Shown: positions 3,584 through 18,268, counted from the first letter of the stretch. The stretch is 32,000 bases of DNA from Candidatus Nitrosopumilus koreensis AR1 (GCF_000299365.1 NC_018655.1:1230001-1262000); one strand, 5' to 3'. Made by a program: numbers and translations. The notes: generated by a model from the letters alone, not told the origin.

Positions 3584-6093
3584 TTGAAACTATCATGTCC
3601 CAAATGCAAGTCCAAAATAGAGATTCAAAAGACTTTCAATAAAAAAATGCATGTATCTTGTGGAAATTGTGGAATAGAAGACCTGCTAGAATTTTCAAAA
3701 AACATAGACGAGGTGTTTTTAGAGTTTCTTTCAAGATACGACAAGGGCTTAGTAGTTGAAAATGGATTGTCTGAAGGTCTCAAAAATGAAGGAATTGTAC
3801 GTGATGAAAGCGAAATTAGAGATATGATTGGCAAAAACAAACCAGACAAAATAACTGAAGAAATTTTATTTTCAAAAAAAGATTATGTCTCGCAATACAA
3901 AGTTTTGAGCAATCCTGAGCCCAAGATGGGCTCTAAAGTAGAAGATTTAGGGTTAGATGAGGCAATTACCAAACACCTCAAGGAATTAGGAATTAATCAA
4001 TTTTACAAATTTCAAGAAGAGGCAATCATGGAAATTGCATATGGGGAAAATATTGTCATTGAAGCACCTACTGCTTCAGGAAAAACAGAGGCATTTTTAA
4101 TTCCAGTTATTCAAAAAATTAAAAAAATACAAGTGATGGCAAGGTCTTTGCAATTTTTGTTTATCCAACAAAGGCACTTGCAAGAGATCAGTTTCCAAAG
4201 ATCAAAAAATTTGCAGAAAAAATTGGAATTAACGTAAAGGTGTTTGACGGAGATACAAAGATTACAGAAAGAAGAGACATCATAGACAATCCTCCACACA
4301 TTCTTGTAACAAACTTTGATGTTTTACATTATCACATGTGGCATCAAACGAAATTTTCATCAATACTCAGTTCCACAAGAATTTTGGTAACAGATGAAGC
4401 ACATGTGTATTCAGGTATTTTTGGCTCTAATGTACACTACATCATAAAAAGGCTCAAAAGAATTTGCACAAACAAACTGCAGTTTGTAGCCGCATCAGCC
4501 ACACTAGATGATGCCAAAGGATTCTGTGAGAAACTGTTTGGAGAAAAAATGCAAAAAATTCAAGGCTCTGGAAAAAAAGGCCAAACAGACTTTGCAATGT
4601 TGTTTCCATCACTTCGGACACAAAGATCACTGATGGTTGAATTGACAAAAAAGCTTACTCAAAAAAATCACAAAACTATGGTCTTTAATAACTCACATCT
4701 AAATTCTGAATTACTAGCTATTCAAGCCAAAAAACAAAAAGTCAACATCAAGGTTCACAGGGCCGGATTAATGGCAAATTATCGAACATTTGTTGAAAAA
4801 CAGTTCAAAGAAGACATGCTTGATGCAATTTCATGCACACCTACTCTTGAATTGGGCATAGATGTAGGAAATGTTGATTGTGTGATATCATCAACCATAC
4901 CAGTAAATCGACTTATTCAGAGAATAGGTAGGGCTGCAAGAAAGGGACAGAAAGGATATGCGTTTTTGACATTAGGAAATGATCCAATTTCACAATACTA
5001 CAAAAATCACCCTGATGACTATTTTGAGGATGTAGAGAAAACATACATCGATCCCAAAAATCCCTTTGTAGAAGAATTTCAAGTGTTGGCAATGGCTTGT
5101 GACAGACCAATATCAAAACATGAGCTCAAAGAACACCAAGAAGTAATAGAGCACCACATCATCAAAGGAACACTAAAAGAATTCAACAATAGAATAATTC
5201 CAAATTTTGACAAAATTAATTCTATTCTCAACGAATACAGCATAAGAGGAATAGGAAAATCAGTAGACATTTTCTTAAATAACAAAAAAGTAGGAGATAG
5301 AATTCTGCCAATCGCACTAGAAGAACTGCATAAAGATGCAATCTATTTTCTAGCAGGAATTAGATACAAAGTAAAAGAGTTTGACTATCCAGAAAAAAAT
5401 TATGCAAAGATTGAGAAAATTCCCAGAGATTATCCATACTATACAAAGGCATTAACTGAAGAGTGGCCCACAATTGAAACAGTTTTTGAGAAAAGAGAAG
5501 CAGGTGGAGTTGAAGTTGCATTTTGTAAATTACATATTGAGAAAAAAGTATATGGATATGTCAATATCGAACTTGGACAAGAAGTAGCTCAAGGAGAAAA
5601 AGTTCTACTAGAAAATCCACTAGAATATAATTTCGTTACAAAGGGAATTGTATTTCATGCACCAAGACCTCTCAAAGTAATAGAAGAGTCTGAAGATGAA
5701 GAATACACAGAGGCAAGCGGATATCATGCAACTGAACATGTGGTAATTGAAGGAAGCAATATGATCACAGGAGGGGCATCTCAAGACTTGGGCGGCATAT
5801 CACTAGGCACATCAGGCTTGATTTTCATTTATGATGGAGCAATTGGCGGAAGTGGTGCAAGCAAAGCACTCTATGACAGATTTGAGAAAGCACTTGAAAG
5901 AAGTATGTTTATTGTAAAGGAATGTCCATGCAAAAACGAAGCAGGCTGTCCTCGATGTACGTTCTCATACAGATGTGGAAACAACAATGAGTACTTGCAC
6001 AAATATTCTTCTTTAGAAATTTTGGAGAGAATTAACAATGGTGAAAAAACACAACTAATTGATCCTACAGAAGGAGACAGGCCTCTTGTTTGA
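3584..6093 (+). pseudogene. DEXH helicase with N-terminal Zn-ribbon and C-terminal DUF1998/MZB Zn domain (MrfA/YprA-like), split by a 1-nt frameshift in an A7 run
   Basis: ORFs 3584-4237 and 4240-6093. Motif I APTASGKTEAF is in frame 1. Motif Ia VYPTKALARDQ is read only in the second frame from 4123 on. DEAH (VTDEAH) and the C-terminal CPCKNEAGCPRC...C cluster follow. The frames join if A7 at 4121-4127 is read as A8. TTG start is needed to keep the CPKC...CGNC ribbon. Confidence 0.85.
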
Positions 6094-6132
6094 ATCAAAA
6101 TGGGATAAATATAACAGAAAATTATAATCATC

Positions 6133-6963
6133 ATGGAAAAAGTAGCTCTAGTTACCGGGAGTTCTTCTGGAATTGGATTAGAGACGGCATTAGCACTTGC
6201 AAAAGATGGATATCATACATTTGCAAGTATGAGGGATGTATCAAAAGCAGGTGAATTAGAAAACGCTGCAAAAAAAGAAAATCTTCCAATTGAAGTGATA
6301 GAGCTTGACGTTGATAAAGAAGAATCTATCACATCAGCTGTTAAAAAAGTAATTGAAGATGCTGGAAGATTAGATGTTTTAGTAAATAATGCAGGATATG
6401 GACAATTTGGATGTACAGAAGATGTTTCAGTAGATGACTTTAGAAAACAGTTTGAAACTAATTTCTTTAGCGTTGTAAGAATCATTCAAGAGGTTGCACC
6501 AATTATGAGAAATCAAAATTCAGGAATTATTGTAAACATTAGTTCAGTAGCTGGAAGAATGGGATTACCAGGATCTCCTGCATATATCAGTTCAAAGTTT
6601 GCATTAGAAGGATTAGGCGAATGTTTACGATATGAGCTTGGTCAATTTGGAATCAAGACAACCCTAATTGAGCCAGGTGTAATCAAGACAAACTTTTTTG
6701 AATCAATGAGAGTTCCAGATTCAAAATCAGATCCAAAATACAAAGAGTTGACAGACCACATTCTTTCAGGACTAAAAATGATGGTTCAGATGGGAACTGC
6801 GCCATCACAGGTAGCAGAAGTGATCATCAAGGCGATTCATGATGATGAGATGCTTCCAAGATATGTTGTTGGGACAGACGCTGCCATGTTTATGGAGGCA
6901 AAAAAAATGAAAACAGACTTGGAATTTGAGAAATATATGAGCAAAGAATTATTTCCAAGTTAA
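6133..6963 (+). CDS. Short-chain dehydrogenase/reductase (SDR)
   Basis: TGSSSGIG cofactor motif, NNAG, and catalytic S...YxxxK (YISSK). Confidence 0.9.
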   Translation: MEKVALVTGSSSGIGLETALALAKDGYHTFASMRDVSKAGELENAAKKENLPIEVIELDVDKEESITSAVKKVIEDAGRLDVLVNNAGYGQFGCTEDVSVDDFRKQFETNFFSVVRIIQEVAPIMRNQNSGIIVNISSVAGRMGLPGSPAYISSKFALEGLGECLRYELGQFGIKTTLIEPGVIKTNFFESMRVPDSKSDPKYKELTDHILSGLKMMVQMGTAPSQVAEVIIKAIHDDEMLPRYVVGTDAAMFMEAKKMKTDLEFEKYMSKELFPS

Positions 6964-7055
6964 AATATTTGAGTCACTGAATTTTACAAAAAACATGTCA
7001 ACTAAACATTTTTGATTCTAATGGAAAGACAAAACATAGAGTCTAAGAAGACTTT

Positions 7056-7877
7056 TCAGATTTGACAGATGACTTCACTTGATGTCCCACCATCATAAAG
7101 ATGAATTATTGCATCAATAGTACAATCAGAGATATAAGGAAAATCAGTTTCAATAGAGGGATACATAAGATCTTCAGGCGCTGTAGAATGCGCAAGACCA
7201 AATGCATGTCCAAGTTCATGACGCAATATTGTTTTAAATTGAGAATCAGAAAGATTATCTGTTTCAAAAATTACTATATGTGATTTTAAAATTTGGTTTT
7301 GTGTATCATCGGTTATTGATTTGGTCCAACCGGAATACCCATCACCATTTCTGAAATTAGAGAGTTCAATTGTAATATCACCTTCACCATTTTTTGAATT
7401 TATCAATTCAATGTTTATAGGAATAAACAATTCAGTATCTTGCTTTTCTGAAGCTGCTTCTAGTGCACCTTTCCATCCAAGATAATACGTAGACATAGTA
7501 CCCTCAGGTCCTTTATGTAGTAATGAGTTGTCAATTTCAATTGTTTCGCCTGACAAGAGGACGGATTTTATTAATTCAATTTTTTCAGAATGCTTTTCAC
7601 CATTAAGTATATTGACATATAGCGTATCACCATCTACCAACCTCCAAGAGAGATGAGTGTCAATTGTGTCTCCTTTCAAATTTTGAATGAAATATCCCGT
7701 ATTTGTCAATGAATTCAATTCAACTTGGTGTTCTTCACCAACCACGGATGTGAAAAATAATGAAGAAAGTATCAGCACTCCAGATAAAATGGATGTAATT
7801 AAAACAAGATTCTTTTTAAATACGTTGTTTTTTTTTCCATGATTTGTTTCGTCAAGAAACAGAATTATCTTTGTCAA
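7056..7877 (-). CDS. Membrane-anchored or secreted metzincin zinc protease (matrixin/M10-like)
   Basis: HELGHAFGLAHS (HExxHxxGxxH) followed by a Met-turn (LMYP). N-terminal hydrophobic anchor LVLITSILSGVLILSSLFF. Confidence 0.8.
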   Translation of the reverse strand: MTKIILFLDETNHGKKNNVFKKNLVLITSILSGVLILSSLFFTSVVGEEHQVELNSLTNTGYFIQNLKGDTIDTHLSWRLVDGDTLYVNILNGEKHSEKIELIKSVLLSGETIEIDNSLLHKGPEGTMSTYYLGWKGALEAASEKQDTELFIPINIELINSKNGEGDITIELSNFRNGDGYSGWTKSITDDTQNQILKSHIVIFETDNLSDSQFKTILRHELGHAFGLAHSTAPEDLMYPSIETDFPYISDCTIDAIIHLYDGGTSSEVICQI

Positions 7878-7922
7878 TTCACTCCCTCTCGCACCTTATG
7901 AATTACTTATTTAATATAACAT

Positions 7923-8753
7923 ATGATCAAGTTATGGAGGGGTAAATTGGAAATAAAATATAATGGAAATTTAACATATTACAAATACACACTAATCAAA
8001 AAATGGGACAAAAATTTTAAGAATAACAAAAGAAGAAACTTAAAGTTTGTAAATGAAGTGTTGACATTATTTTGTTTTAATAATGAATTAACATCTTGGG
8101 AAGCAGCAAAAAAAATTTCAAAGAAGAATTTTGAATCAATTAATAAAAATGAAAAAAAAATAAAGAGATTATTTGTAGGACGGATGGATAATGGGACAAA
8201 ATATGAAGGGTTATTACAAAACGAAATTATAATTAACATTAAAAATAAAAAAAATAACAAATATAGAATTTCTTTGTTTGGGTTGTTGTATTGTTTAACA
8301 TATTTGAAGCTGACCAATAAAGAGATTGATAACATAGCAAAAATGCATCAAAAACTACTCCCAAAAATTTTTAGTCGTTGGGATGAAATGAAAGAAAAGG
8401 GAGATGAATGTTACAGATTACGATTGTTATCAAGAGGGCTACTACTAGATCGATTTGACATGATTAATGATAGAAAATTTCCAACGATGGAAATGTTATT
8501 TTATTTACATATGAAATTTTTAAAATATTCAGAAATGTGTCATGAAAAGGATTTGGCAGAGGAGATATCATATTGGTTTTATATCACATATTTTTATTCA
8601 AAAAGATCATATTCAATTCAAGAAAAAAATAACTTTAAAAAAATTCTTAACAAAAATCCGTCAATAAATACATGGTTCAAAAAATTTTTGTTCGAAACCA
8701 AAAAATATTTTAAAAAAAGTAACACAATATTGGTTAAAAATGAATGGGTTTAA
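7923..8753 (+). CDS. Hypothetical Lys/Asn-rich protein, no recognisable domain
   Basis: 276-aa ORF, visibly more AT-rich than its neighbours. Ends about 25 nt before the receiver gene start on the same strand. Confidence 0.5.
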   Translation: MIKLWRGKLEIKYNGNLTYYKYTLIKKWDKNFKNNKRRNLKFVNEVLTLFCFNNELTSWEAAKKISKKNFESINKNEKKIKRLFVGRMDNGTKYEGLLQNEIIINIKNKKNNKYRISLFGLLYCLTYLKLTNKEIDNIAKMHQKLLPKIFSRWDEMKEKGDECYRLRLLSRGLLLDRFDMINDRKFPTMEMLFYLHMKFLKYSEMCHEKDLAEEISYWFYITYFYSKRSYSIQEKNNFKKILNKNPSINTWFKKFLFETKKYFKKSNTILVKNEWV

Positions 8754-8777
8754 GAGCAATAGAGGGTATTGAAAGGT

Positions 8778-9155
8778 ATGAGTTTAAAAAAGAAAGTTTT
8801 GGTTATTGACGATGATAAAGAAGTGTTAGAAACCACTTCAGCTATGATAGAAATGTTTGGGTATGATACAATTCAGGCAGAGAATGGATTTGATGGAATT
8901 GAGAAATTAATAGAAAAACCAGATCTGGTGTTAATGGATGGAAGAATGCCAGGTATGGATGGATATGAGACATTTAAAAAAATGAGGGAAAACGATGCAA
9001 GAATCAACGTTATTTTTATGACTGCGTATAAAGACGACGAAAAGTGGAAAGAAGCAAAAAAAAATTGTGCCATATATAATATTCAGAAGCCTTTTGAGCC
9101 AAAATTTTTAGAAGAATTAATCAAAAGACACGTAAATCAAATTACAAATTGTTAG
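8778..9155 (+). CDS. Single-domain response regulator (CheY-like receiver)
   Basis: VLVIDDD...LVLMDGRMPGMDG...MTAYKD gives the acidic pocket, phospho-acceptor Asp, and T and K residues. ATG at 8778 is preferred over the TTG at 8769. No output domain. Confidence 0.85.
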   Translation: MSLKKKVLVIDDDKEVLETTSAMIEMFGYDTIQAENGFDGIEKLIEKPDLVLMDGRMPGMDGYETFKKMRENDARINVIFMTAYKDDEKWKEAKKNCAIYNIQKPFEPKFLEELIKRHVNQITNC

Positions 9156-9159
9156 AAAA

Positions 9160-11295
9160 TCAAACAGGCAAAACTATATGAAAAGTTGTAGGGTTTAGAG
9201 ATACAGAGATAGAACCTCCATGTTGTTCTATAATGTTTTTACAGGTAGTTAATCCCAATCCAGTACCCTGTTGTTTGGTAGTTGTCAAAGGTTCAAAAAC
9301 AGAATCAACGATATTTTTTGGTATTCCAATACCAGAATCTTGAAAATAAATATGGATTAGATTGTCGGTTTTTTTGTAGAATATTTTGATACTACCATCT
9401 TTATCCCCTATTGCATGAATTGAATTATGAATCAGATTAATGAAAACAATTTCAAGTTTATTGAGATCTGCACGAACTTCTAATTTTTCTTTTGGGAGTT
9501 CAACAGATATATGTTTTGGAATCATGATTTGAGTCAGCACATCTTGCAAAAATGATTTAAGTTCTAATGAGGAGTAATCAAGTTTGGATGTTTTTACAAA
9601 ATTTAACACATCATTAATTTGATGATCAATTCTACGTATAGATTTTTCAACAGATTCAAAATATTTTGTTAGTTCTTTTTCTTGTATGGTTTTCATTCTC
9701 AACACAATAACAGAATTTTTAATGGCTGTAAGCGGGTTTTTAATATCATGTGCAATACGAGCAGATAATTCACCTATCGTAAGCAATTTTTCAGTTTTTA
9801 GATTTTTTTCAACTATCTTTAATTTTTCTTGGAGTTGTTTTAATTCAGAAATATTAACTAAAACAGTATTACTTCCAATCAGAGCATTATTAGCATCATA
9901 CAGGTTCGATACTGAAATCAAACAAGTCACAATTTTACCGCTCTTTGATTCTAAATCAATCTCTAAACCTTGAACATTACCATGACCCTTCCAAGTCTGA
10001 AAAATTTGTTCTAATTTTTTCTTATCATGATCAGCAACGTGATCGAATATGTGTGCTCCTATAACTTCATTTTTAGAATATTCAAGGGTTTCACAATATT
10101 TCTTATTACAATTATTGATTTTCCCATCCAATCCAACACTTCTTAACATCTCAGGCATGCCATCATAGAGATTTTGATATCTTTCTGAAAGCGATTTGAT
10201 GGAGTCAGTGTATGATTTTATTTCATCAACCATTTGTTTGAAACTTCGTGCTAATTTTCCAATTTCATCATTACCAAATTTACTAATATCAATCTGAAAT
10301 TGCCTTTGAGTAATGTTACTAGTCTGAGATTCCAAAATACGTATAGGTCTTGTAAGAATTCGGGCAAAATATAACGAAGTTGCAATTGCAACAAGAATAG
10401 AAAATACGATCAATATTATCAATAGAATAATAGTCTGGTAAAAGGAACCAAATAATTCTGGAGAAGAAAATTCAATTGCATAATAATAATCATCATAATT
10501 TGTAGAAATTAGATAGAAAACTGAATCATGATAATGTATAGTTTGTATCAAAGAATTATCTACTAGATTGTTTAACGATGTTTGTAATTGTAGTTTTTTT
10601 TCATTTGAGAAATTATTAAAAAAAGATGTTGCAGATTGGATGTCTTTTGAAATAGTATCACCATCAGAATTTATAATGGTACGAGACAAATAAGAATTTG
10701 AAGAGAAAGTAGGTGGCAACACAACATCATAAATTAATAACACATATCCAATAGTTTCGACATCATTATTGATGGTACTCAAAAATCCCAGACTATTTCC
10801 AAAGCGCATATCAAATTCAGAAATAACATTTAATTTTTTTAAATCATTTTTGTTTTGAATTTTCATTTGAATATATTCTACATATGGCTTGTACGAAGAA
10901 AGAACATCTACAGTGTAAACCATATTACTAAATTTATCAAAAATAATAATATTTTGAATATTTTTATTGTTATTTTCAAAGGAAGAGGAAATAGACTCTA
11001 GTTGGAAGAGATATGGTAATGATTCAACAGAGGTTGATGTATCCAAAAAAGTCATTGAATGGATAAGTATGTTATTTTTTGAAAAAATATCTAAAGAATT
11101 TTCAATATAAGACAGGTTATCATAGATTTGAGTTTGTCCAGAAATTAAATCAGAATTTATTTCAGATTGAACAGTATTTGAAAAATTTTCATATTCATTT
11201 ATCAACAAAAAAGTACTAAAAAGAGTCAAAGGGATGACGCTAGATAACAAGACAATGAAGAGCAGCCTATGATAGAAACTAGAAAAAAAATTCAT
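9160..11295 (-). CDS. Sensor histidine kinase (TM, ~270-aa extracytoplasmic domain, TM, HAMP, PAS, HisKA, HATPase_c)
   Basis: H-box SARIAHDIKNPLTAI, N-box FINLIHNSIHA, G-boxes DSGIGI and GTGLGL. Two hydrophobic segments flank a large outside domain. The ATG at 11295 overlaps the upstream stop (ATGA). Confidence 0.9.
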   Translation of the reverse strand: MNFFSSFYHRLLFIVLLSSVIPLTLFSTFLLINEYENFSNTVQSEINSDLISGQTQIYDNLSYIENSLDIFSKNNILIHSMTFLDTSTSVESLPYLFQLESISSSFENNNKNIQNIIIFDKFSNMVYTVDVLSSYKPYVEYIQMKIQNKNDLKKLNVISEFDMRFGNSLGFLSTINNDVETIGYVLLIYDVVLPPTFSSNSYLSRTIINSDGDTISKDIQSATSFFNNFSNEKKLQLQTSLNNLVDNSLIQTIHYHDSVFYLISTNYDDYYYAIEFSSPELFGSFYQTIILLIILIVFSILVAIATSLYFARILTRPIRILESQTSNITQRQFQIDISKFGNDEIGKLARSFKQMVDEIKSYTDSIKSLSERYQNLYDGMPEMLRSVGLDGKINNCNKKYCETLEYSKNEVIGAHIFDHVADHDKKKLEQIFQTWKGHGNVQGLEIDLESKSGKIVTCLISVSNLYDANNALIGSNTVLVNISELKQLQEKLKIVEKNLKTEKLLTIGELSARIAHDIKNPLTAIKNSVIVLRMKTIQEKELTKYFESVEKSIRRIDHQINDVLNFVKTSKLDYSSLELKSFLQDVLTQIMIPKHISVELPKEKLEVRADLNKLEIVFINLIHNSIHAIGDKDGSIKIFYKKTDNLIHIYFQDSGIGIPKNIVDSVFEPLTTTKQQGTGLGLTTCKNIIEQHGGSISVSLNPTTFHIVLPV

Positions 11296-12581
11296 GACTG
11301 GTTTTCCCAGGAATTTCCCCATTTTGCATAAAGGTAATTTAAGAAATCATTCCATTCACCGACTGTTCTTGTATCAGGGTAAGGATTAGGAGGGATGGGG
11401 TTTTGAGAGCTGAAAATAATTTCAACTTGACCATCAGACAAGATTTTACCTATACGCATAGTTTTGTAAACATGATTAGTAGGATCAATACCAGTTATTC
11501 CACTAGGGGCAGAAAAGGTAATTTGTTTTAACTTATCAAGCACGTCATCATTTTCAAAAGAATTTGCTTTTTCAACAGCCTTTGCATAAAGGTAAATTCC
11601 TACATAAGCTGCCTCCATAGAATCAGAAATGAAATACTTAGACCCAAGTGTTTTTTTAATATTTGACACAAATTGACGGTTCTCATAACTGGGTATATTT
11701 TCAAAATAATTCCACACAAGATAATCATCTTCTACAGATACAGCATAATTAGAGATTTGTGATTGACTCAAACTAAAAGACATGGTAGGAATCAGATCAG
11801 AAGTTATTCCCTGTTTTCTTAATTCTTTAAAAAAATATTCGTTGCTATCACCGTTAATAGTGTTAATAATTACATCAGGATTTGTTTTCTTTATGTTTGC
11901 AACTATATCCACAAAATTTTTTGCTCCAAGTAATGCATATTCTTCTCCAACAATATCAAAACCGTATGTTTTAGAATAGTCTTTGATTATTGTATTTGCA
12001 CTATATGGAAAAACATAATCAGACCCCACCAAGAAAAATTTTGTTCCAAGATTTTCTTGTGCCCAGATTATTCCAGGTATTACCTGTTGATTCGGGGCAG
12101 CCCCCAGATAAAGAATATTCGGACGAGATTCTAATCCTTCGTATTGTACAGGATAAAATAAAACCGCATCATATTCATCTAATACAGGAATCATGCTTTT
12201 TCTACTTGCGGAAGTCCATCCACCAAAAATTACAGACACATTATCATCTTTTAGTAAATCGGTTGCTCTAGATGCAAATGTTTGTCCATTTGATTCACCA
12301 TCATAAATTATTGGAACAATTTTTTTATCTAACAAACCACCTTTGGAATTAATTTCTTCAATCGCAAATAATGTTGCATTAAGCACAGGCAATTCACTTG
12401 AGGCCATAGTTCCAGTTAACGAATGTAATATTCCAACTTTAATCACATCGTGTTGTTGAGAAATATTTTGACTTGGAGTTAATACAGATTCAGAATCAAA
12501 TGAAAAGAAGAAAAAAAGACCTAAAGCAAAAACAAAGAATCCAATTAATGCAAGAATCACAAATTCATTTCTTTGATTCAA
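11292..12581 (-). CDS. Type I periplasmic-binding-fold protein, UrtA/AmiC/FmdD (urea/short-amide binding)-like, membrane-anchored
   Basis: 429 aa with an N-terminal anchor. From memory, KVGILHSLTGTMA, GGWTSASRK, LFYPVQYEG, VGSDYVFP and NTINGDSN closely follow UrtA/AmiC-clade signature blocks. No ABC permease or ATPase genes nearby. Confidence 0.75.
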   Translation of the reverse strand: MNQRNEFVILALIGFFVFALGLFFFFSFDSESVLTPSQNISQQHDVIKVGILHSLTGTMASSELPVLNATLFAIEEINSKGGLLDKKIVPIIYDGESNGQTFASRATDLLKDDNVSVIFGGWTSASRKSMIPVLDEYDAVLFYPVQYEGLESRPNILYLGAAPNQQVIPGIIWAQENLGTKFFLVGSDYVFPYSANTIIKDYSKTYGFDIVGEEYALLGAKNFVDIVANIKKTNPDVIINTINGDSNEYFFKELRKQGITSDLIPTMSFSLSQSQISNYAVSVEDDYLVWNYFENIPSYENRQFVSNIKKTLGSKYFISDSMEAAYVGIYLYAKAVEKANSFENDDVLDKLKQITFSAPSGITGIDPTNHVYKTMRIGKILSDGQVEIIFSSQNPIPPNPYPDTRTVGEWNDFLNYLYAKWGNSWENQS

Positions 12582-12705
12582 TTTTTTTCAGTATATTTTG
12601 AATTATTTATCTATGTTTATCATAGTTTGAAAAAAGATGTAAAAAAATATCACCTTACATCACGGCAAATAGAAAGGATTATCAATTATCATTAGAAATC
12701 ATTGT

Positions 12706-13066
12706 GTGGATGAAGTAAAATTTGAAGAGTTATGCAAACAAATCTTTGCAATAAATGAAAAAATCCGTTTTGTAGGTATTGTAGAAAATAACAAGTTTTT
12801 TTATAAAATGAGAGAAGGAATAAACTCATATCTTTCTAAAAAAACAAACAGAAGAATCTCTTCTAGGAGCATTGAAAAGATGGGAAATTAGAGATGAATT
12901 TAAAGAAGAGATTGGAGATGCGTTTTACGCAATGGCAATGTATGAACAAACAAAACGATTTACAATGAAGATGGGAAAGGGATTGTTGTGCATCAGTACA
13001 GAAATAGATGTTGATAACGATGAGATTGTCATGAAGGTACTAAATGAAACCAGTAAGGTATTATGA
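12706..13066 (+). pseudogene. Small conserved hypothetical protein (~120 aa) split by a frameshift in an A7 run; distant paralog of 31600-31986
   Basis: ORFs 12706-12891 and 12872-13066 overlap. Reading A7 (12838-12844) as A6 gives a continuous ...SYLSKKQTEESLLGALKRWEIRDEF... Similar length and pattern to the 128-aa ORF at the window end. GTG start. Confidence 0.55.
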
Positions 13067-13165
13067 TATAGACATTAAATATCAGATCCGTGATTAGTAA
13101 GAATAGATTGATATACACATAGAGTCCAGTTTTTGTCAAAGTCCACAATTTTAGAGTGAAAAAGA

Positions 13166-14827
13166 ATGAAATGGAAAACACTACAACACAACGGAATCTT
13201 ATTTCCTCCTGCCTATGAGGCACAGGGTATTAAAATAAAGATCAAAGGAGAAAAAATCAATCTCAGTTTAGAGCAGGAAGAGATGGTATACCAATGGGCA
13301 AAAAAGAAAGACACCCCATATGCTCAAGACAAAGTTTTTCAAAAAAATTTTACAGCAGATTTTGCAAAAACACTAGATTCTAAATTTAAAAAAATTTCAT
13401 ATGAAGATATTGATTTTTCTGATGCTTACAAGCTTGTAGACAAAGAAAAAGATCTCAAAGAGATGATGACAAAAGAAGAAAAAAAGGCAATTGCTGCAAA
13501 AAGAAAAGAGCTTCGTGAAGAACTCAAAGCAAAATACGGAGTTGCCATCATGGATGGAATAAAAGTCGAAGTTGGAAACTACATGGCAGAACCACCAGGA
13601 ATTTTTATTGGCAGAGGAGAGCATCCATTACGAGGACGATGGAAACCTCGTGTTACACCAAAAGATGTCACGCTAAACATGGGAAAAGAGGCAAAAATTC
13701 CTGAAGGAAAATGGGGTAAAATTATTCATGATAAAGATTCAATGTGGCTTGCAAGTTGGATGGATTTTCTTACACAAAAAAGAAAGTATGTTTGGCTTGC
13801 AGACACTGCAGGACTAAAACAAGACAGAGACAAAGAAAAGTATGAAAAAGCAGTAAAGCTTGCAAAAGAAATTGAAAAAATCAAAGATAGAATTGTAAAA
13901 GATATGAAGAGTGCGGATCCAAAAATTAGTAGAATTGCTACTGCATGTTATTTGATTTACAGAACTGCTATGAGAGTGGGAGATGAAAAGGATCCAGAAG
14001 AAGCAGATACTGTTGGTGCAACTACCCTAAGAAAAGAACATATCAAAATTACTTCAGATGCAATAGAATTTGACTTTTTAGGAAAAGACAGCGTCAGATG
14101 GCAAGAGACAGTCAAAGCAGAAGGACAAGACAAACAATTTCAAGAAAACCTCAAGAAATTAGTAGAAAAGAAAAAACCAAAAGATGAGATTTTTCACGAT
14201 ATAACTTCACGACATGTTAATGCATATTATTCTAGTATTGTAAAGGGACTTACTGCAAAAGTATTCAGAACATATCTGGCAACAACCGTGGTCAAAGATT
14301 ATCTAAAAGAACATGACAACATGAAGGGAAAATCAGACAATGAGAAACTATACCATGCAAAACTAGCAAATCTTGAAGCCGCAATTATGTGTAATCACAA
14401 ACGAACCATACCAAAAACGTTTGAGCAGTCATTACAAAAAAAGAAAGATACTCTCAAGAACAGGGAAAAAGAAAAAGCATGGGAGAAAACACAGCAGACC
14501 CTCAAAAAAGTAGAATCAACTGAGCCAAAGACAGAGACTCAAAAAAAGAACAAGGCAAAAAGAATCAAGACATTAAATGAGCAAATCAAGAAACAAAAAC
14601 AAAAACACAAAGAACGAATTGAGAAACTAAAGTTACAGGTTGACTTGTCAGAAAGGACTAGGGATTACAATCTTGGAACGTCACTTAGAAATTACATAGA
14701 TCCACGTGTTTTCAAGGCATGGACTGATGAGGTAGGTGCAGAATGGGAGAAATTGTATACTGCTGCACTTCAAAAGAAGTTCCTCTGGGTCAAAAATGAA
14801 AACGTAAAGTGGAAGGAAATTAAATAA
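13166..14827 (+). CDS. top1: DNA topoisomerase IB (eukaryotic type)
   Basis: 553 aa. N-terminal WKTLQHNGILFPP, core AxxYLIYRTAMRVGDEK, lysine-rich linker, and C-terminal LGTSLRNYIDPRV carrying the catalytic Tyr context (SKxNYxDPR). Confidence 0.92.
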   Translation: MKWKTLQHNGILFPPAYEAQGIKIKIKGEKINLSLEQEEMVYQWAKKKDTPYAQDKVFQKNFTADFAKTLDSKFKKISYEDIDFSDAYKLVDKEKDLKEMMTKEEKKAIAAKRKELREELKAKYGVAIMDGIKVEVGNYMAEPPGIFIGRGEHPLRGRWKPRVTPKDVTLNMGKEAKIPEGKWGKIIHDKDSMWLASWMDFLTQKRKYVWLADTAGLKQDRDKEKYEKAVKLAKEIEKIKDRIVKDMKSADPKISRIATACYLIYRTAMRVGDEKDPEEADTVGATTLRKEHIKITSDAIEFDFLGKDSVRWQETVKAEGQDKQFQENLKKLVEKKKPKDEIFHDITSRHVNAYYSSIVKGLTAKVFRTYLATTVVKDYLKEHDNMKGKSDNEKLYHAKLANLEAAIMCNHKRTIPKTFEQSLQKKKDTLKNREKEKAWEKTQQTLKKVESTEPKTETQKKNKAKRIKTLNEQIKKQKQKHKERIEKLKLQVDLSERTRDYNLGTSLRNYIDPRVFKAWTDEVGAEWEKLYTAALQKKFLWVKNENVKWKEIK

Positions 14828-14837
14828 TTAAAAAAGA

Positions 14838-16442
14838 TTACTTGGGAACATATTCAAAGCCAGGTCCCCATGTAGAGCGCTGTCTCTTTTGATAATCCTT
14901 TGAAGACTCTACATCTCCTTTCTTAGGATCATTCATGCCAAGGTGAGGGTCTATCGGAGAATAACCCGAGCATTCAAAATGGAATTCATTTGTTAGTGCA
15001 AATCCATTGTAAAAGCTTTCTTCAAGATCATGTTCTGTTTTAAGAATATAATCAGTTACATGGCAACTTGAATAATCATATCCTCTAGCAAGAACATCTC
15101 CATACATCAAATCAATTTTTACATTAAACAATTCATCATTAGAAGAAACCCCAGTTGATTTTGCACCAGCCTTTCTAGCATTATCAACCACATCATAAAG
15201 CAATGGGGTTACTCCAGGCACTCCTACAAGTTCAAATGTAGGATTTGCTCTTGCAATCAGATTACCCTGATAAAACTCAGGAAATTCTACAATCTCAGTT
15301 CCACTATCAAAACTAAATGTAGCCACGGCTTTAGGACCAGTACCCATGTTATAATCAACTGTGACAGGCTCAGGTTCATTGTCTGGATTTACAGGACTCA
15401 ATCCAGAACACTCAACATCAAGAATTTCTGCAGTAGCAAATCCGCGTTTTCCAGTATACCCTTCTTCTTTATCTTGCAAAGTTAGTATATCATATCCACT
15501 TACAATACAGCCCTCATATTCAAGTCCACGTATTTTTTGTTCAGGTACTGCTGTTAATCCACTCAATTTTTCAGGAATTACAAATTCTACATTAACATCA
15601 AAGTCTTCATTAAAACTTGTCGCAAGGCCATCAACTTTTTGAGATTTTATAATTGCATTGTCAATTAATGGGTGAGGTAGCACTGCAGTGATTATTTGGA
15701 AGCTTGGAGTTCCAATATCTTCCTCACTAAATCCTCCAGTTGATGTAAAGATTACAGATTCTATCTTTTCAGCACCATTATCAAAGTCAAATGTTAGAAA
15801 AGTTCGTAAATCATTTGCTTGTTTGAATGGCAATGCGCCATAATCTGTAAAAGTTCTTTCTCCAGGACGTACACTTGGAAAATTTTCTTTTTGATTGATT
15901 GATACACCACCGCAGTTAAACTCTATGGAATTGACAATAGCAAATCCAGAGTTTGCTGCATGATAGGATTCATAATCATCATTTTGGGTTGTTACAGAAT
16001 GTGAAGTGATTTCACAGTTTCTGTATGAGAATGATTTCAAGGTTGTATCAGCTTGCATTATTTTTACATCCGCATCAAAAAATCTATGATCATATTCAAA
16101 TGCACTACCGCCAGTTAATTTTGCTAGTCTGAATTTGTATGCTTCATCTAATGCCATATGAAGATGAGGGTTATGACCAACTACACCTTCCATCGAAAAA
16201 CTAGTTCCAGAACCAGATACTATATCAGAAGTAGTTGAAAAGACAGGGAAATTTACAGTTTCAACACCGTCTCTAAAATGAAAAGTCGCCACATTGTGTA
16301 TTCCTGCTACAAAATCATATTCATGAGGAATTCCCTCATCATCTGCAAATGCCATGTTTGAAGATACTTGAGAATACATTAGAATTGTTGAGATTATTAG
16401 AATGGATGTCAGAAAAGCGGTTTTTTGAAAAAATCTCTTCAT
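14838..16442 (-). CDS. Secreted protein made of three ~145-aa divergent tandem domains of unknown function
   Basis: The start is taken at the internal MKRFFQKTAFLTSILIISTILMYSQVSSNMAFA, a signal-peptide-like sequence. Each repeat has (A/R)TFxFxxGxExVxFP near its start and ends in a C...ExxCxGxSP pattern. Confidence 0.7.
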   Translation of the reverse strand: MKRFFQKTAFLTSILIISTILMYSQVSSNMAFADDEGIPHEYDFVAGIHNVATFHFRDGVETVNFPVFSTTSDIVSGSGTSFSMEGVVGHNPHLHMALDEAYKFRLAKLTGGSAFEYDHRFFDADVKIMQADTTLKSFSYRNCEITSHSVTTQNDDYESYHAANSGFAIVNSIEFNCGGVSINQKENFPSVRPGERTFTDYGALPFKQANDLRTFLTFDFDNGAEKIESVIFTSTGGFSEEDIGTPSFQIITAVLPHPLIDNAIIKSQKVDGLATSFNEDFDVNVEFVIPEKLSGLTAVPEQKIRGLEYEGCIVSGYDILTLQDKEEGYTGKRGFATAEILDVECSGLSPVNPDNEPEPVTVDYNMGTGPKAVATFSFDSGTEIVEFPEFYQGNLIARANPTFELVGVPGVTPLLYDVVDNARKAGAKSTGVSSNDELFNVKIDLMYGDVLARGYDYSSCHVTDYILKTEHDLEESFYNGFALTNEFHFECSGYSPIDPHLGMNDPKKGDVESSKDYQKRQRSTWGPGFEYVPK

Positions 16443-16593
16443 TGAGGCCAATATTCCAAAAAAGAAGTTAAAGAGTGAGTATTCATTGCAAGGCAGTGTA
16501 TTTTTTTGAAAAAATTTAGTTATAAAAAAACAAAAATGCAAGCAAAATTTTGAAAGAATCATTTAATTTCCCATATTTTCAGGCATATACTAT

Positions 16594-16707
16594 GCCGGGG
16601 TAGCTCAGCCTGGTTAGAGTGCCAGTTACTTGGTAAACTCTAGCGGTTCTCCAACTAAGGCAATACTCATAATCTGGAGGTCGCGAGTTCGAAACTCGCC
16701 CCCGGCA
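16594..16707 (+). tRNA. tRNA with CAT anticodon (elongator Met or Ile2) containing a 39-nt intron at a non-canonical position (30/31)
   Basis: Perfect 7-bp acceptor stem GCCGGGG/CCCCGGC. D arm GCTC-AGCCTGGTTA-GAGT, T arm GCGAG-TTCGAAA-CTCGC. Removing 16626-16664 restores the anticodon arm CCAGA-CTCATAA-TCTGG, giving a 75-nt mature tRNA. Confidence 0.85.
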
Positions 16708-16830
16708 CACATACGGCATCCAACTAAAGATGCAATACAGTACCAGGTTCAAAACTATGTAGAACTATGCAATTTTCACAGGGTATCTAACTACACTGCA
16801 ATGGAGTTTAATTCACGTGGGCTTGGATAA

Positions 16831-17631
16831 TTAGGATATTTTGAATAATTTTTTTGCATGTTTATACATGAAACCATCCCTGAACTCACTTTTGATTTTC
16901 AATTTTGCAACAAAATTAAGATAAGAATCCATTGTACTTATTGGCCAATCAGTACCGTATAGAAGATAACGAGGTTCACCTGCATAGTTGATAAGCTCTG
17001 CAACTTTTTCCTTTATCATTTTTTCAAAATAATGATCAAACGAACCTATTACCAATCCAGAAACGTCTGCATACACATTCTTATTTTTGTAGAGAACTTC
17101 TTGGGCATCTTGAATCCAAGGATTTCCTAAATGACACATAACAATTTTTAGTTCAGGATTGTCTACTGCAACCTCATCTAGGTTAAGTGGTCTTGCAAAA
17201 CGCAACTTTCCCTTTTCAGAATAAGTATCTCCCGTATGAAACATCACAGGAATGCCAAACTCTATGCATGTATCATAGACTTTTTGGTAACGCTCGTCAT
17301 ACGGATAATAATGCTCATATCCAGAATAAATCTTCATGGCTTTGATTTTACCGTCTTTTATCCATTGCCGATACTTTCGCAAGTCATCATCTGTATGGTT
17401 GTCAATGGTAAATCCTGCTGCAATCCCTAAATTGTCATATTTTTGAATGGCGTCAATGATCTGTTTTGTTGATGGACGTTCAGAATTGACTTTGTAAGAA
17501 GACAGTATTATGGCATAATCTACATTATTGTTGGTCATCTCAGTTTGAAGTGCGTTTAAACGATCTTCCAAGTTTGGAACATTCTGAAGTAGTTCGTATT
17601 GATTTATGTGAACGTGGCAATCAATGATCAT
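16831..17631 (-). CDS. Metal-dependent TIM-barrel amidohydrolase (amidohydrolase_2-like)
   Basis: N-terminal IDCHVH metal motif, later FHTGD, CHLGNPW and GTDWP. Confidence 0.75.
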   Translation of the reverse strand: MIIDCHVHINQYELLQNVPNLEDRLNALQTEMTNNNVDYAIILSSYKVNSERPSTKQIIDAIQKYDNLGIAAGFTIDNHTDDDLRKYRQWIKDGKIKAMKIYSGYEHYYPYDERYQKVYDTCIEFGIPVMFHTGDTYSEKGKLRFARPLNLDEVAVDNPELKIVMCHLGNPWIQDAQEVLYKNKNVYADVSGLVIGSFDHYFEKMIKEKVAELINYAGEPRYLLYGTDWPISTMDSYLNFVAKLKIKSEFRDGFMYKHAKKLFKIS

Positions 17632-18268
17632 TGTCTACAAAATTGGGGTTTTTCCATTCAATAAAAGTTGCATAGTTTAGAGACCTAGAATCTTTGATGT
17701 AATTTGGCAGAATTTTGATAAATCTGAACCCATTTCTTAATTGGAATGATAAAACAGGTTCTCGTATTTCATGGCGTTTGACCTTTTTGACATAATCAAT
17801 CGGAGTCAATGATTCTGCATGTTCACAGTAATTGAAGATTCTTCCGCCTGCAATAATCCTTTTTAGTCCTAATTTTATTGCAAGATCCTTTCGGGCATTA
17901 TACAATTTTGTGGCAATTCCCAATCGTCTAAAATCAGGATGAGTTAATACCTCTGCTCCATAAAGAGTATCTCCTTTCGGATCATGATTTTTAAACATGC
18001 TATCTCCACAGACTTCTCTCCACGAATGTTCTTTGTATTCAGGATTTAATGTGATTATCAAACTACTAGACGAACCAACTATCATGTCTTTGTATTCTGC
18101 TACAATCTGCCCCTCAGGAAATTTGTTTATATGCTCTTTGAGGTGCTTGGGTTTCCAATAGACCCCTTCAGCTGCCATGTAAGGAAAGGCAACTTTTTCT
18201 AATTCAATAATTTTTGAGATATCCTCCAAATCCATTTTACGGACAGTTACATAGTTTTTAGTATTCAT
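17621..18268 (-). CDS. GNAT-family N-acetyltransferase
   Basis: Acetyl-CoA motif A region (HPDFRRLGIATKLY). Overlaps the downstream amidohydrolase by 11 nt. Confidence 0.7.
   Translation of the reverse strand: MNTKNYVTVRKMDLEDISKIIELEKVAFPYMAAEGVYWKPKHLKEHINKFPEGQIVAEYKDMIVGSSSSLIITLNPEYKEHSWREVCGDSMFKNHDPKGDTLYGAEVLTHPDFRRLGIATKLYNARKDLAIKLGLKRIIAGGRIFNYCEHAESLTPIDYVKKVKRHEIREPVLSFQLRNGFRFIKILPNYIKDSRSLNYATFIEWKNPNFVDNDH

Follow-up and report, generated by a model that had tools for sequence, protein, structure and literature searches.

In LuxP-LuxQ, TorT-TorS, HptA-HptS and ChvE-VirA, a type I solute-binding protein (SBP) with no role in transport is encoded beside a membrane histidine kinase; in the first of these systems the SBP docks on a dCache-type outer domain, and the sensor domains of LuxQ, ChiS, VirA and the archaeal BasT share this dCache fold class (PMC8050422). 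A review of SBP-operated receptors covered 13 SBP families, with Peripla_BP_5 not among them and urea unmentioned (PMC8050422), and a later survey recorded only "amide" for the single Peripla_BP_5 structure. BasB-BasT and CosB-CosT of Halobacterium salinarum are archaeal systems in which an anchored SBP works with a dCache-like transducer and no transporter is present. The Peripla_BP_5 family includes UrtA, the SBP of the urtABCDE transporter, as well as AmiC of the AmiC-AmiR system of Pseudomonas aeruginosa, which has a regulatory rather than a transport role. A dedicated extracytoplasmic urea sensor is found in Helicobacter pylori, where a Cache/PAS-like domain of TlpB itself binds urea directly and the signal goes to chemotaxis, without the help of a separate binding protein. 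Here we analysed a stretch of 32,000 nucleotides (hereafter the window) from the marine ammonia-oxidizing archaeon Candidatus Nitrosopumilus koreensis AR1 (NC_018655.1, positions 1,230,001-1,262,000), in which a gene for an UrtA-clade SBP (P0001) is followed directly by a gene for a sensor histidine kinase (P0002). Our analysis suggested that this pair is probably a binding-protein-dependent two-component sensor with urea as its most likely ligand, and not a fragment of a transporter.

The SBP gene lies on the minus strand (11292..12581) and encodes 429 amino acids when read from a TTG codon, the public annotation being 422 amino acids long with a GTG start at 12560. The Pfam profile Peripla_BP_5 (PF13433) matched the protein with 434.8 bits (E 3e-130) over profile positions 1-361 of 363, exceeding the gathering cut-off of 27 bits. 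The top NCBIfam match was UrtA (TIGR03407), with 427.6 bits and thus under the model cut-off of 492.75, and the NCBIfam profiles of branched-chain amino-acid binders gave 35 bits. Among PDB entries, the relatives found were 8tg1 (E 2e-116), cyanobacterial UrtA (~1e-90) and AmiC (4e-41), and the AlphaFold2 (AF2) model showed a type I binding-protein fold (pLDDT 79.8). A hydropathy scan placed an N-terminal membrane anchor at residues 4-28 (12498..12572, minus strand), and in the AF2 model a helix at residues 2-27 was followed by a low-confidence linker at 28-43. The open reading frame (ORF), the anchor and the Peripla_BP_5 match therefore agreed with the first-pass annotation of the window, in which this gene had been described, from the nucleotide sequence, as encoding a membrane-anchored type I binding protein of 429 amino acids. 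The protein ends in the tail PNPYPDTRTVGEWNDFLNYLYAKWGNSW (11301..11390, minus strand), which contains a predicted helix at residues 407-420 and represents the signature of a receptor-linked clade described below.

The crystal structure and mutagenesis of UrtA from Prochlorococcus marinus revealed nine residues that surround urea, and mutating most of these nine contacts abolishes or lowers the urea binding measured for this protein (PMC10392092). When the contacts were mapped through the 8hic alignment, W120, S122, Y141, Q144, E146, Y190, F192, N246 and S274 of P. marinus UrtA corresponded to W122, S124, Y143, Q146, E148, Y189, F191, N243 and S270 of the SBP, which are encoded within 11772..12218 (minus strand), and all nine were identical. 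These contacts are invariant across 14 archaeal homologues, and the pattern WSYQEYFNS is present in 81 of the 89 family members sampled, including all 18 receptor-linked ones. AmiC agreed with the SBP at 4 of the 9 pocket positions, the differences being W to Y, Q to P, F to Y, N to V and S to T. Moreover, AmiC is cytoplasmic and sequesters an ANTAR antiterminator, whereas the SBP carries a membrane anchor, and no ANTAR domain was found in a Pfam scan of the neighbouring genes. An AmiC-like amide sensor was thus ruled out by both the pocket and the cellular location, and of the UrtA/AmiC label given earlier only the UrtA half was retained, in line with the nine contacts and the UrtA top matches. 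Best matches to branched-chain amino-acid binders with non-urea pocket residues would have spoken against the first-pass annotation; instead, the best profile and structure matches were to UrtA, and every urea contact was kept. Judged by its pocket residues, this copy of the SBP most likely binds urea, which is the best-supported ligand.

The kinase gene occupies 9160..11295 on the minus strand and encodes 711 amino acids from ATG 11295, or 720 if translation begins at ATG 11322. We favoured the former because kinases of the relatives begin with M..FFSSYY, which resembles MNFFSSFYH at 11295, leaving ATG 11322 still open. The public kinase protein (P0123; 681 amino acids) begins about 40 residues downstream and loses the first transmembrane helix. 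The stop codon of the SBP gene (TGA, 11292-11294) and the start codon of the kinase gene (ATG, 11293-11295) overlap in an ATGA at 11292..11295 (minus strand), as had been claimed, and the same 4-nt overlap occurs in three relatives (genomes G051 and G027 [loci L011/L012], and G170), while a 3-nt gap separates the two genes in G079. Next to these cases, a metagenome-assembled genome (L014, G049:C52, 6186-9848, minus strand) showed the SBP and kinase frames with no intervening stop, giving one ORF of 1220 amino acids with Peripla_BP_5, dCache_1, HAMP, PAS, HisKA and HATPase_c. A true fusion would give the dCache domain an incorrect membrane topology, and this ORF more likely reflects a kinase that starts at its own Met, or an assembly error.

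From the N terminus, the kinase consists of a first transmembrane helix (TM1, 11197-11268), an outside stretch of about 255 amino acids, a second transmembrane helix (TM2, 10363-10434), HAMP (residues 319-369) and PAS (380-493) domains encoded within 9844..10365, and a HisKA (517-577) and HATPase_c (619-719) core within 9166..9774, all on the minus strand and with the domains after TM2 assigned by Pfam. This domain scan bore out the earlier description of a kinase with a large extracytoplasmic domain plus HAMP and PAS. The catalytic motifs are intact, including the phospho-acceptor His525 (codon 9748-9750), the N box at 629, G1 at 662 and G2 at 686. The genome encodes 11 HisKA kinases, this one included.

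The outer domain, P0002 residues 43-296 (10435..11196, minus strand), gave no Pfam match, with dCache_1 (PF02743) absent at E<=5, and a word-indexed search of 5.8 billion proteins returned only the domain itself, with no homologue at E<=1e-3. Alignment to the relatives with hhalign was weak (pairwise E 0.005, probability 7%), with collinearity across 239 columns, and we therefore assigned the fold from the AF2 model and its Foldseek matches. The AF2 model, computed from an alignment with 16 partner receptors (pLDDT 75.8, pTM 0.63), consists of a long stalk helix and two PAS-like modules ahead of TM2. Foldseek matched this model to the dCache domains of McpB/McpC, 3lid, vpHK1S-Z8, Mlp24, Tlp3 and DctB, with a best E value of 9e-11, the one exception being a WalK model at rank 5. 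These data indicated that the outer domain has a dCache fold, as predicted by modelling. Kinases of the relatives matched the Pfam dCache_1 profile directly, clearly in one case (64.1 bits) and weakly in seven, among which L019 (52.5 bits) and G170 (51.0 bits) lay just above the 45-bit cut-off and the other five (26-45 bits) below it; dCache_1 matches were also recorded for the kinases of L016-L018. As a separate observation, the SBPs of L006 (G025) and L014 (G049) are near-identical (end branches of 0.04), and their partner sensor domains are only 74% identical. By this sequence comparison, evolution is far more rapid in the dCache partner than in the SBP.

The genome is closed (one contig of 1,639,964 bp, 99.46% complete, ~33% GC) and belongs to an archaeal ammonia oxidizer, as its AmoA was matched at E 8e-115. 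A profile scan of the complete genome, window included, found no BPD_transp_2 permease of the Urt/HAAT family, and the Pfam-scanned part of the window (3584-18268) contained no permease, its neighbouring genes being unrelated to urtBCDE. The complete genome has a single Peripla_BP_5 gene, and neither a urease alpha subunit nor CheW was found in it. The earlier claim that the SBP comes with no transporter was thus confirmed: urtBCDE is neither adjacent nor elsewhere, and no ATP-binding cassette (ABC) permease of the Urt/HAAT type was found near the SBP or anywhere in the closed genome. In addition, the lack of CheW ruled out chemotaxis as the output.

We found the SBP in 8 of the 151 genomes of Nitrosopumilaceae, and a genus scan added a ninth carrier, G170. 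A homologous kinase lies directly downstream of the SBP in all nine, two of which are short contigs ending within the kinase gene, and the same order was seen on four archaeal metagenome or metagenome-assembled contigs, often beside a receiver-only gene. Among six relative carriers tested, five have no Urt-type permease and the sixth, G079, has two on another contig. Urease is present in 4 of the 8 carriers (5 of 9 with G170) compared with 82 of the 151 family genomes (54%), a comparison that is descriptive only, since the genomes are kin and not independent. These similar shares argue that the cassette is independent of urea catabolism, and a link to urea catabolism as a general rule was ruled out. 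A 2026 genome paper remarked on the same independence for Nitrosarchaeum without noticing the kinase; puzzled over the orphan SBP, its authors guessed at osmoadaptation (PMC12949516). The first-pass annotation had held that a dedicated urea or amide sensing pathway would be physiologically important in an ammonia oxidizer; a central role of this kind was not supported, given the occurrence in 8 of 151 family genomes, on a strain-specific island in the present one, and with no association with urease.

To place the SBP among its homologues, an alignment-based scan was run on one genome per species, the best 80 loci being a sample of a longer list, and a maximum-likelihood tree of 89 UrtA-like domains was built with a quick search; scanning the genome contigs with a single protein instead of the alignment gave no matches. 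The SBP is followed by urtBCDE at 55 of the 80 loci. A split with SH-aLRT support of 99 separated all 18 receptor-linked SBPs from all 55 urtBCDE-linked ones. The receptor side comprises 25 rows, namely the 18 receptor-linked SBPs, the fusions to Ser/Thr kinase and TrmB, and four rows without an assigned context, two of which proved kinase-linked on a later check. PDB entries 8hic and 8tg1 both fell on the transporter side, the latter grouping with transporter-linked UrtA of Bacillota, while the window SBP was placed inside an archaeal subclade (support 99). UrtA of P. marinus MIT 9313 (8HIC) and of Synechococcus (7S6E/7S6F) share family, fold, about 45% identity and the nine contacts with the SBP, which differs from these transporter proteins in having no urtBCDE, in lying on the opposite side of the split, in its tail and in its sub-cut-off TIGR03407 score. 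The SBP is therefore a UrtA homologue that fails three transporter-defining features: score cut-off, urtBCDE linkage and clade placement. In public records, the SBP as well as its homologues from archaea go by the name "urea ABC transporter substrate-binding protein".

Receptor-linked SBPs come from archaea and six named bacterial phyla. At the loci nearest to the window SBP, the SBP gene is followed by a receptor that begins with dCache_1-HAMP. Of the 18 partners in the receptor-linked set, 16 matched dCache_1, L024 gave HAMP-SpoIIE alone, and the one in the window has the predicted fold with no Pfam match. HAMP is present in all partners except that of L022, whose sole called ORF is a dCache_1 fragment of 227 amino acids. 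The outputs, which include hybrid histidine kinases, differ among loci: a histidine kinase in Thaumarchaeota, Trichormus, Mariprofundus, Ghiorsea and Terasakiella; a SpoIIE phosphatase in Scytonematopsis and an acidobacterium; GGDEF-EAL in Gallionella; and HK-REC-EAL in a genome of Nitrosomonadales. Direct fusions also occur, to a Ser/Thr kinase in Planctomycetota and to a TrmB domain in Woesearchaeota. Because dCache-HAMP is conserved while the outputs interchange, the conserved contact is likely that between the SBP and the dCache domain. The C-terminal tail follows the pattern P.PYP..(K/R)(S/T)..EW..FL..LY..WG..W, which P0001 shares with the receptor-linked SBPs from archaea and from several phyla of bacteria, whereas UrtA proteins linked to urtBCDE carry other tails.

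Fusions were examined on a larger scale by searching 1.84 billion cluster representatives, which yielded 1,103 proteins at E<=1e-30. Among the nearest 150 (50%-identity cluster representatives), 94 are multidomain, and a scan of 58 fused representatives revealed 24 with Pkinase, 6 with HATPase_c, 3 with a nucleotide cyclase and 3 with GGDEF. Since fusions to signalling outputs are so frequent, the UrtA-like domain appears to serve as a sensor module in many proteins. Among the relatives are also giant proteins in which UrtA-like domains are repeated (P0126-P0134): one has 9 matched stretches in 3745 amino acids, and the other eight have two each in about 1450-1600 amino acids. Apart from these, L041 and L045 encode SBP-GAF-histidine-kinase fusions without a transmembrane receptor; they fall on the transporter side of the tree and show Q146E in the pocket, which suggests that UrtA was recruited into signalling a second time, independently of the receptor-linked clade.

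Compared with the described systems, the pair in the window shows the features of SBP-dependent sensor kinases, namely coupled genes, no cognate transporter and a dCache outer domain. As in the LuxP-LuxQ group, a non-transport SBP is encoded beside a membrane histidine kinase, and the resemblance to LuxP/LuxQ noted earlier gained weight from the predicted fold of the outer domain, which falls in the superfamily of the LuxQ periplasmic domain. However, SBPs of that group belong to Peripla_BP_4/1 or SBP_bac_11, whereas the SBP here belongs to the Peripla_BP_5/UrtA clade; further differences are the archaeal host, the tethered SBP, the HAMP and PAS domains of the kinase and a receiver-only regulator. 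BasB-BasT and CosB-CosT are likewise archaeal, with an anchored SBP, a dCache-like partner and no transporter, and BasB belongs to Peripla_BP_6, the sister family of Peripla_BP_5. Their output is a chemotaxis transducer and their ligands are amino acids or compatible solutes, in contrast to a histidine kinase in a genome without CheW and a urea-type pocket. By analogy, the pair most likely works like LuxP-LuxQ or BasB-BasT and belongs to neither family.

A receiver-only response regulator is encoded next to the kinase gene on the plus strand (8769..9155, probable start ATG 8778; Response_reg E 5e-24). It is convergent on the kinase gene, ends 4 nt from the kinase stop, and has a complete receiver signature (DD, Asp57, Thr and Lys). 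We infer the following course, in which the ligand, the contact between SBP and kinase, the direction of regulation, the pairing of kinase with regulator and the output are all proposals. Outside the cell, a small ligand, most probably urea, would be captured in the nine-residue cleft of the membrane-tethered SBP, which in its liganded (or its free) form would then dock on the kinase, translated together with it, at the outer domain with the dCache fold. From there, the signal would pass through TM2, HAMP and PAS to the HisKA/HATPase core, where His525 would be phosphorylated, and the phosphate would be handed to Asp57 of the neighbouring regulator, which may act on a partner via protein-protein contact. 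About three-quarters of thaumarchaeal response regulators are receiver-only (PMC5847659); given this and the lack of chemotaxis genes, the output is probably a protein-protein switch.

Several observations weigh against urea sensing by this particular pair. In the 89-member sample, the SBP alone alters the near-universal pocket-adjacent residues R193Y, A272S, E273Q and E275Q, which sit 2-5 residues from the pocket residues F191 and S270, and its terminal branch is the longest of all (0.9 versus a median of 0.12), the tree itself sampling the best 80 loci and not being exhaustive. The kinase sensor domain has no detectable sequence relative, so that its specificity may have changed or selection may have relaxed. 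The pair is not associated with urease (50% versus 54%), and the genome cannot use urea. Finally, the regulator gene is convergent and not co-transcribed with the kinase gene, so the pairing of the two rests on proximity. The unique second-shell substitutions, the long branch, the score under the UrtA trusted cut-off and the missing link to urease would all suit a sensor of the same two-part architecture whose ligand is not urea but another small amide or urea analogue, be it in the whole clade or in this copy only; formamide, acetamide, hydroxyurea, guanidine-like compounds and methylated urea could be candidates. We consider such a ligand unlikely, since none of the nine direct contacts differs from its counterpart in a UrtA for which urea binding was measured, and their pattern recurs in 81 of 89 members and in every receptor-linked one. 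A division of labour in which the dCache domain of the kinase binds a ligand of its own, with the SBP as a modulator or second input, appeared less probable again. This could take the form of a dual-input receptor, or of a brake exerted by the apo-SBP as in ChiS-CBP; apo-CBP acts as a brake on ChiS. The cytoplasmic PAS domain of the kinase would accord with an additional input, the usual site of direct ligand binding in dCache domains is the membrane-distal module, and ChiS counts among the SBP-stimulated dCache-like kinases (PMC8050422). On the other hand, the outer domain evolves faster than the SBP, as the L006/L014 sensor domains illustrate, and in the window it has no sequence relative, which is a better fit to a docking scaffold than to a conserved small-molecule pocket.

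Two further explanations would deprive the pair of a sensory function in this genome. The extreme divergence of both SBP and kinase, the location on a low-GC, strain-specific island and the frameshift-split small gene next to them might be taken as signs that the cassette has no function at present and is carried along, inactive or decaying, on an island of recent acquisition. Yet the frames are intact over 429 and 711-720 codons, the residues of the pocket, the H, N, G1 and G2 motifs and the receiver are all retained, and the AF2 models of both proteins are confident folds, which makes decay improbable. Least credible of all, with hardly any probability left to it, is the reading implied by the public name, in which the SBP is the remnant of a fragmented urtABCDE transporter and lies beside the kinase by coincidence. 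The permease-free closed genome, the lack of such permeases in five of six relative carriers (with those of G079 on another contig), the kinase pairing in nine of nine genomes, and an SBP clade with no transporter-linked member ruled out a transporter fragment. A binding-protein-dependent two-component sensor with urea as its most likely ligand thus remains our preferred reading of the pair.

Beyond this locus, we tentatively propose a broader reading, which may well prove too wide: the members of the receptor-linked UrtA clade would be extracellular receptors for urea and form a family that crosses the domains of life. In these, a dCache-HAMP unit would be combined with interchangeable outputs, and in ammonia-oxidizing archaea the family would take the form of a small mobile cassette that reports ambient urea independently of urea use. 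If so, the outputs would comprise histidine kinase, PP2C phosphatase, c-di-GMP enzymes and Ser/Thr kinase, the SBP would be either detachable or tethered, and ambient urea could, for instance, point to ureolytic partners or to microenvironments rich in nitrogen. Marine nitrifiers use urea as a major source of both nitrogen and energy, and we know of no extracellular urea-sensing pathway characterized in archaea. Our literature search found no paper linking Peripla_BP_5/UrtA to a sensor kinase or a dCache receptor, and no description of an SBP-dependent urea receptor in any organism. Sensors of this kind are most likely widespread yet uncharacterized, and with them the known receptors operated by binding proteins would gain a fourteenth SBP family and a new class of ligand. 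The transporter-subunit label on the SBP and its relatives misleads metabolic reconstructions of ammonia oxidizers, and the clade signature, consisting of the tail, the pocket and a dCache-HAMP neighbour, provides a simple rule for re-annotation.

The whole cassette is held in a 6.1-kb insert (6967..13104) with 29.5% GC compared with 34-35% in the flanks. The insert lies between an SDR gene (6133-6963) and a topoisomerase IB gene (13166-14827), which are about 10-25 bp apart in ~35 same-genus genomes, and in the same-genus scan an insert at this site was seen only in the present genome. Besides the SBP, kinase and regulator genes, it contains genes for an M10 (matrixin-like) metallopeptidase (7056..7877, minus strand; Pfam scan) and orf276, and a frameshift-split small gene. 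The Lys/Asn-rich orphan orf276 (7923..8753, plus strand; 276 amino acids, 24% GC) ends 15 nt upstream of the regulator gene; it matched no Pfam family, and no homologue was found in the cassettes of the relatives. By its position alone, orf276 is a candidate output partner of the regulator. The small gene (~120 amino acids; 12706-13066, plus strand) is split into overlapping ORFs of 61 and 64 amino acids, and outside the insert a DEAD/DEAH helicase gene with an MrfA Zn domain (3584-6093, plus strand) is split into ORFs of 217 and 617 amino acids; in both, the splits may be homopolymer sequencing errors or real pseudogenes. On the other side, an ORF of 574 amino acids (14838-16562, minus strand) gave no match to a Pfam family at E<=1.

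Repeats of the att kind were not convincingly detected at the borders of the island, and a Pfam scan found no integrase gene among the neighbouring ORFs. Rfam gave no match on the island, and a promoter/terminator scan, which models bacterial promoters whereas the host is archaeal, returned counts equal to those in shuffled sequence. Two other same-genus genomes carry the cassette elsewhere. In one, G079, an M10 homologue adjoins a run of SBP, histidine kinase and two response regulator genes at a different genomic site, and in the other the cassette lies between the genes for an EMG1 methyltransferase and ribosomal protein S19e. The strain-specific insert here and the other sites in these two genomes indicated that the cassette belongs to the flexible genome.

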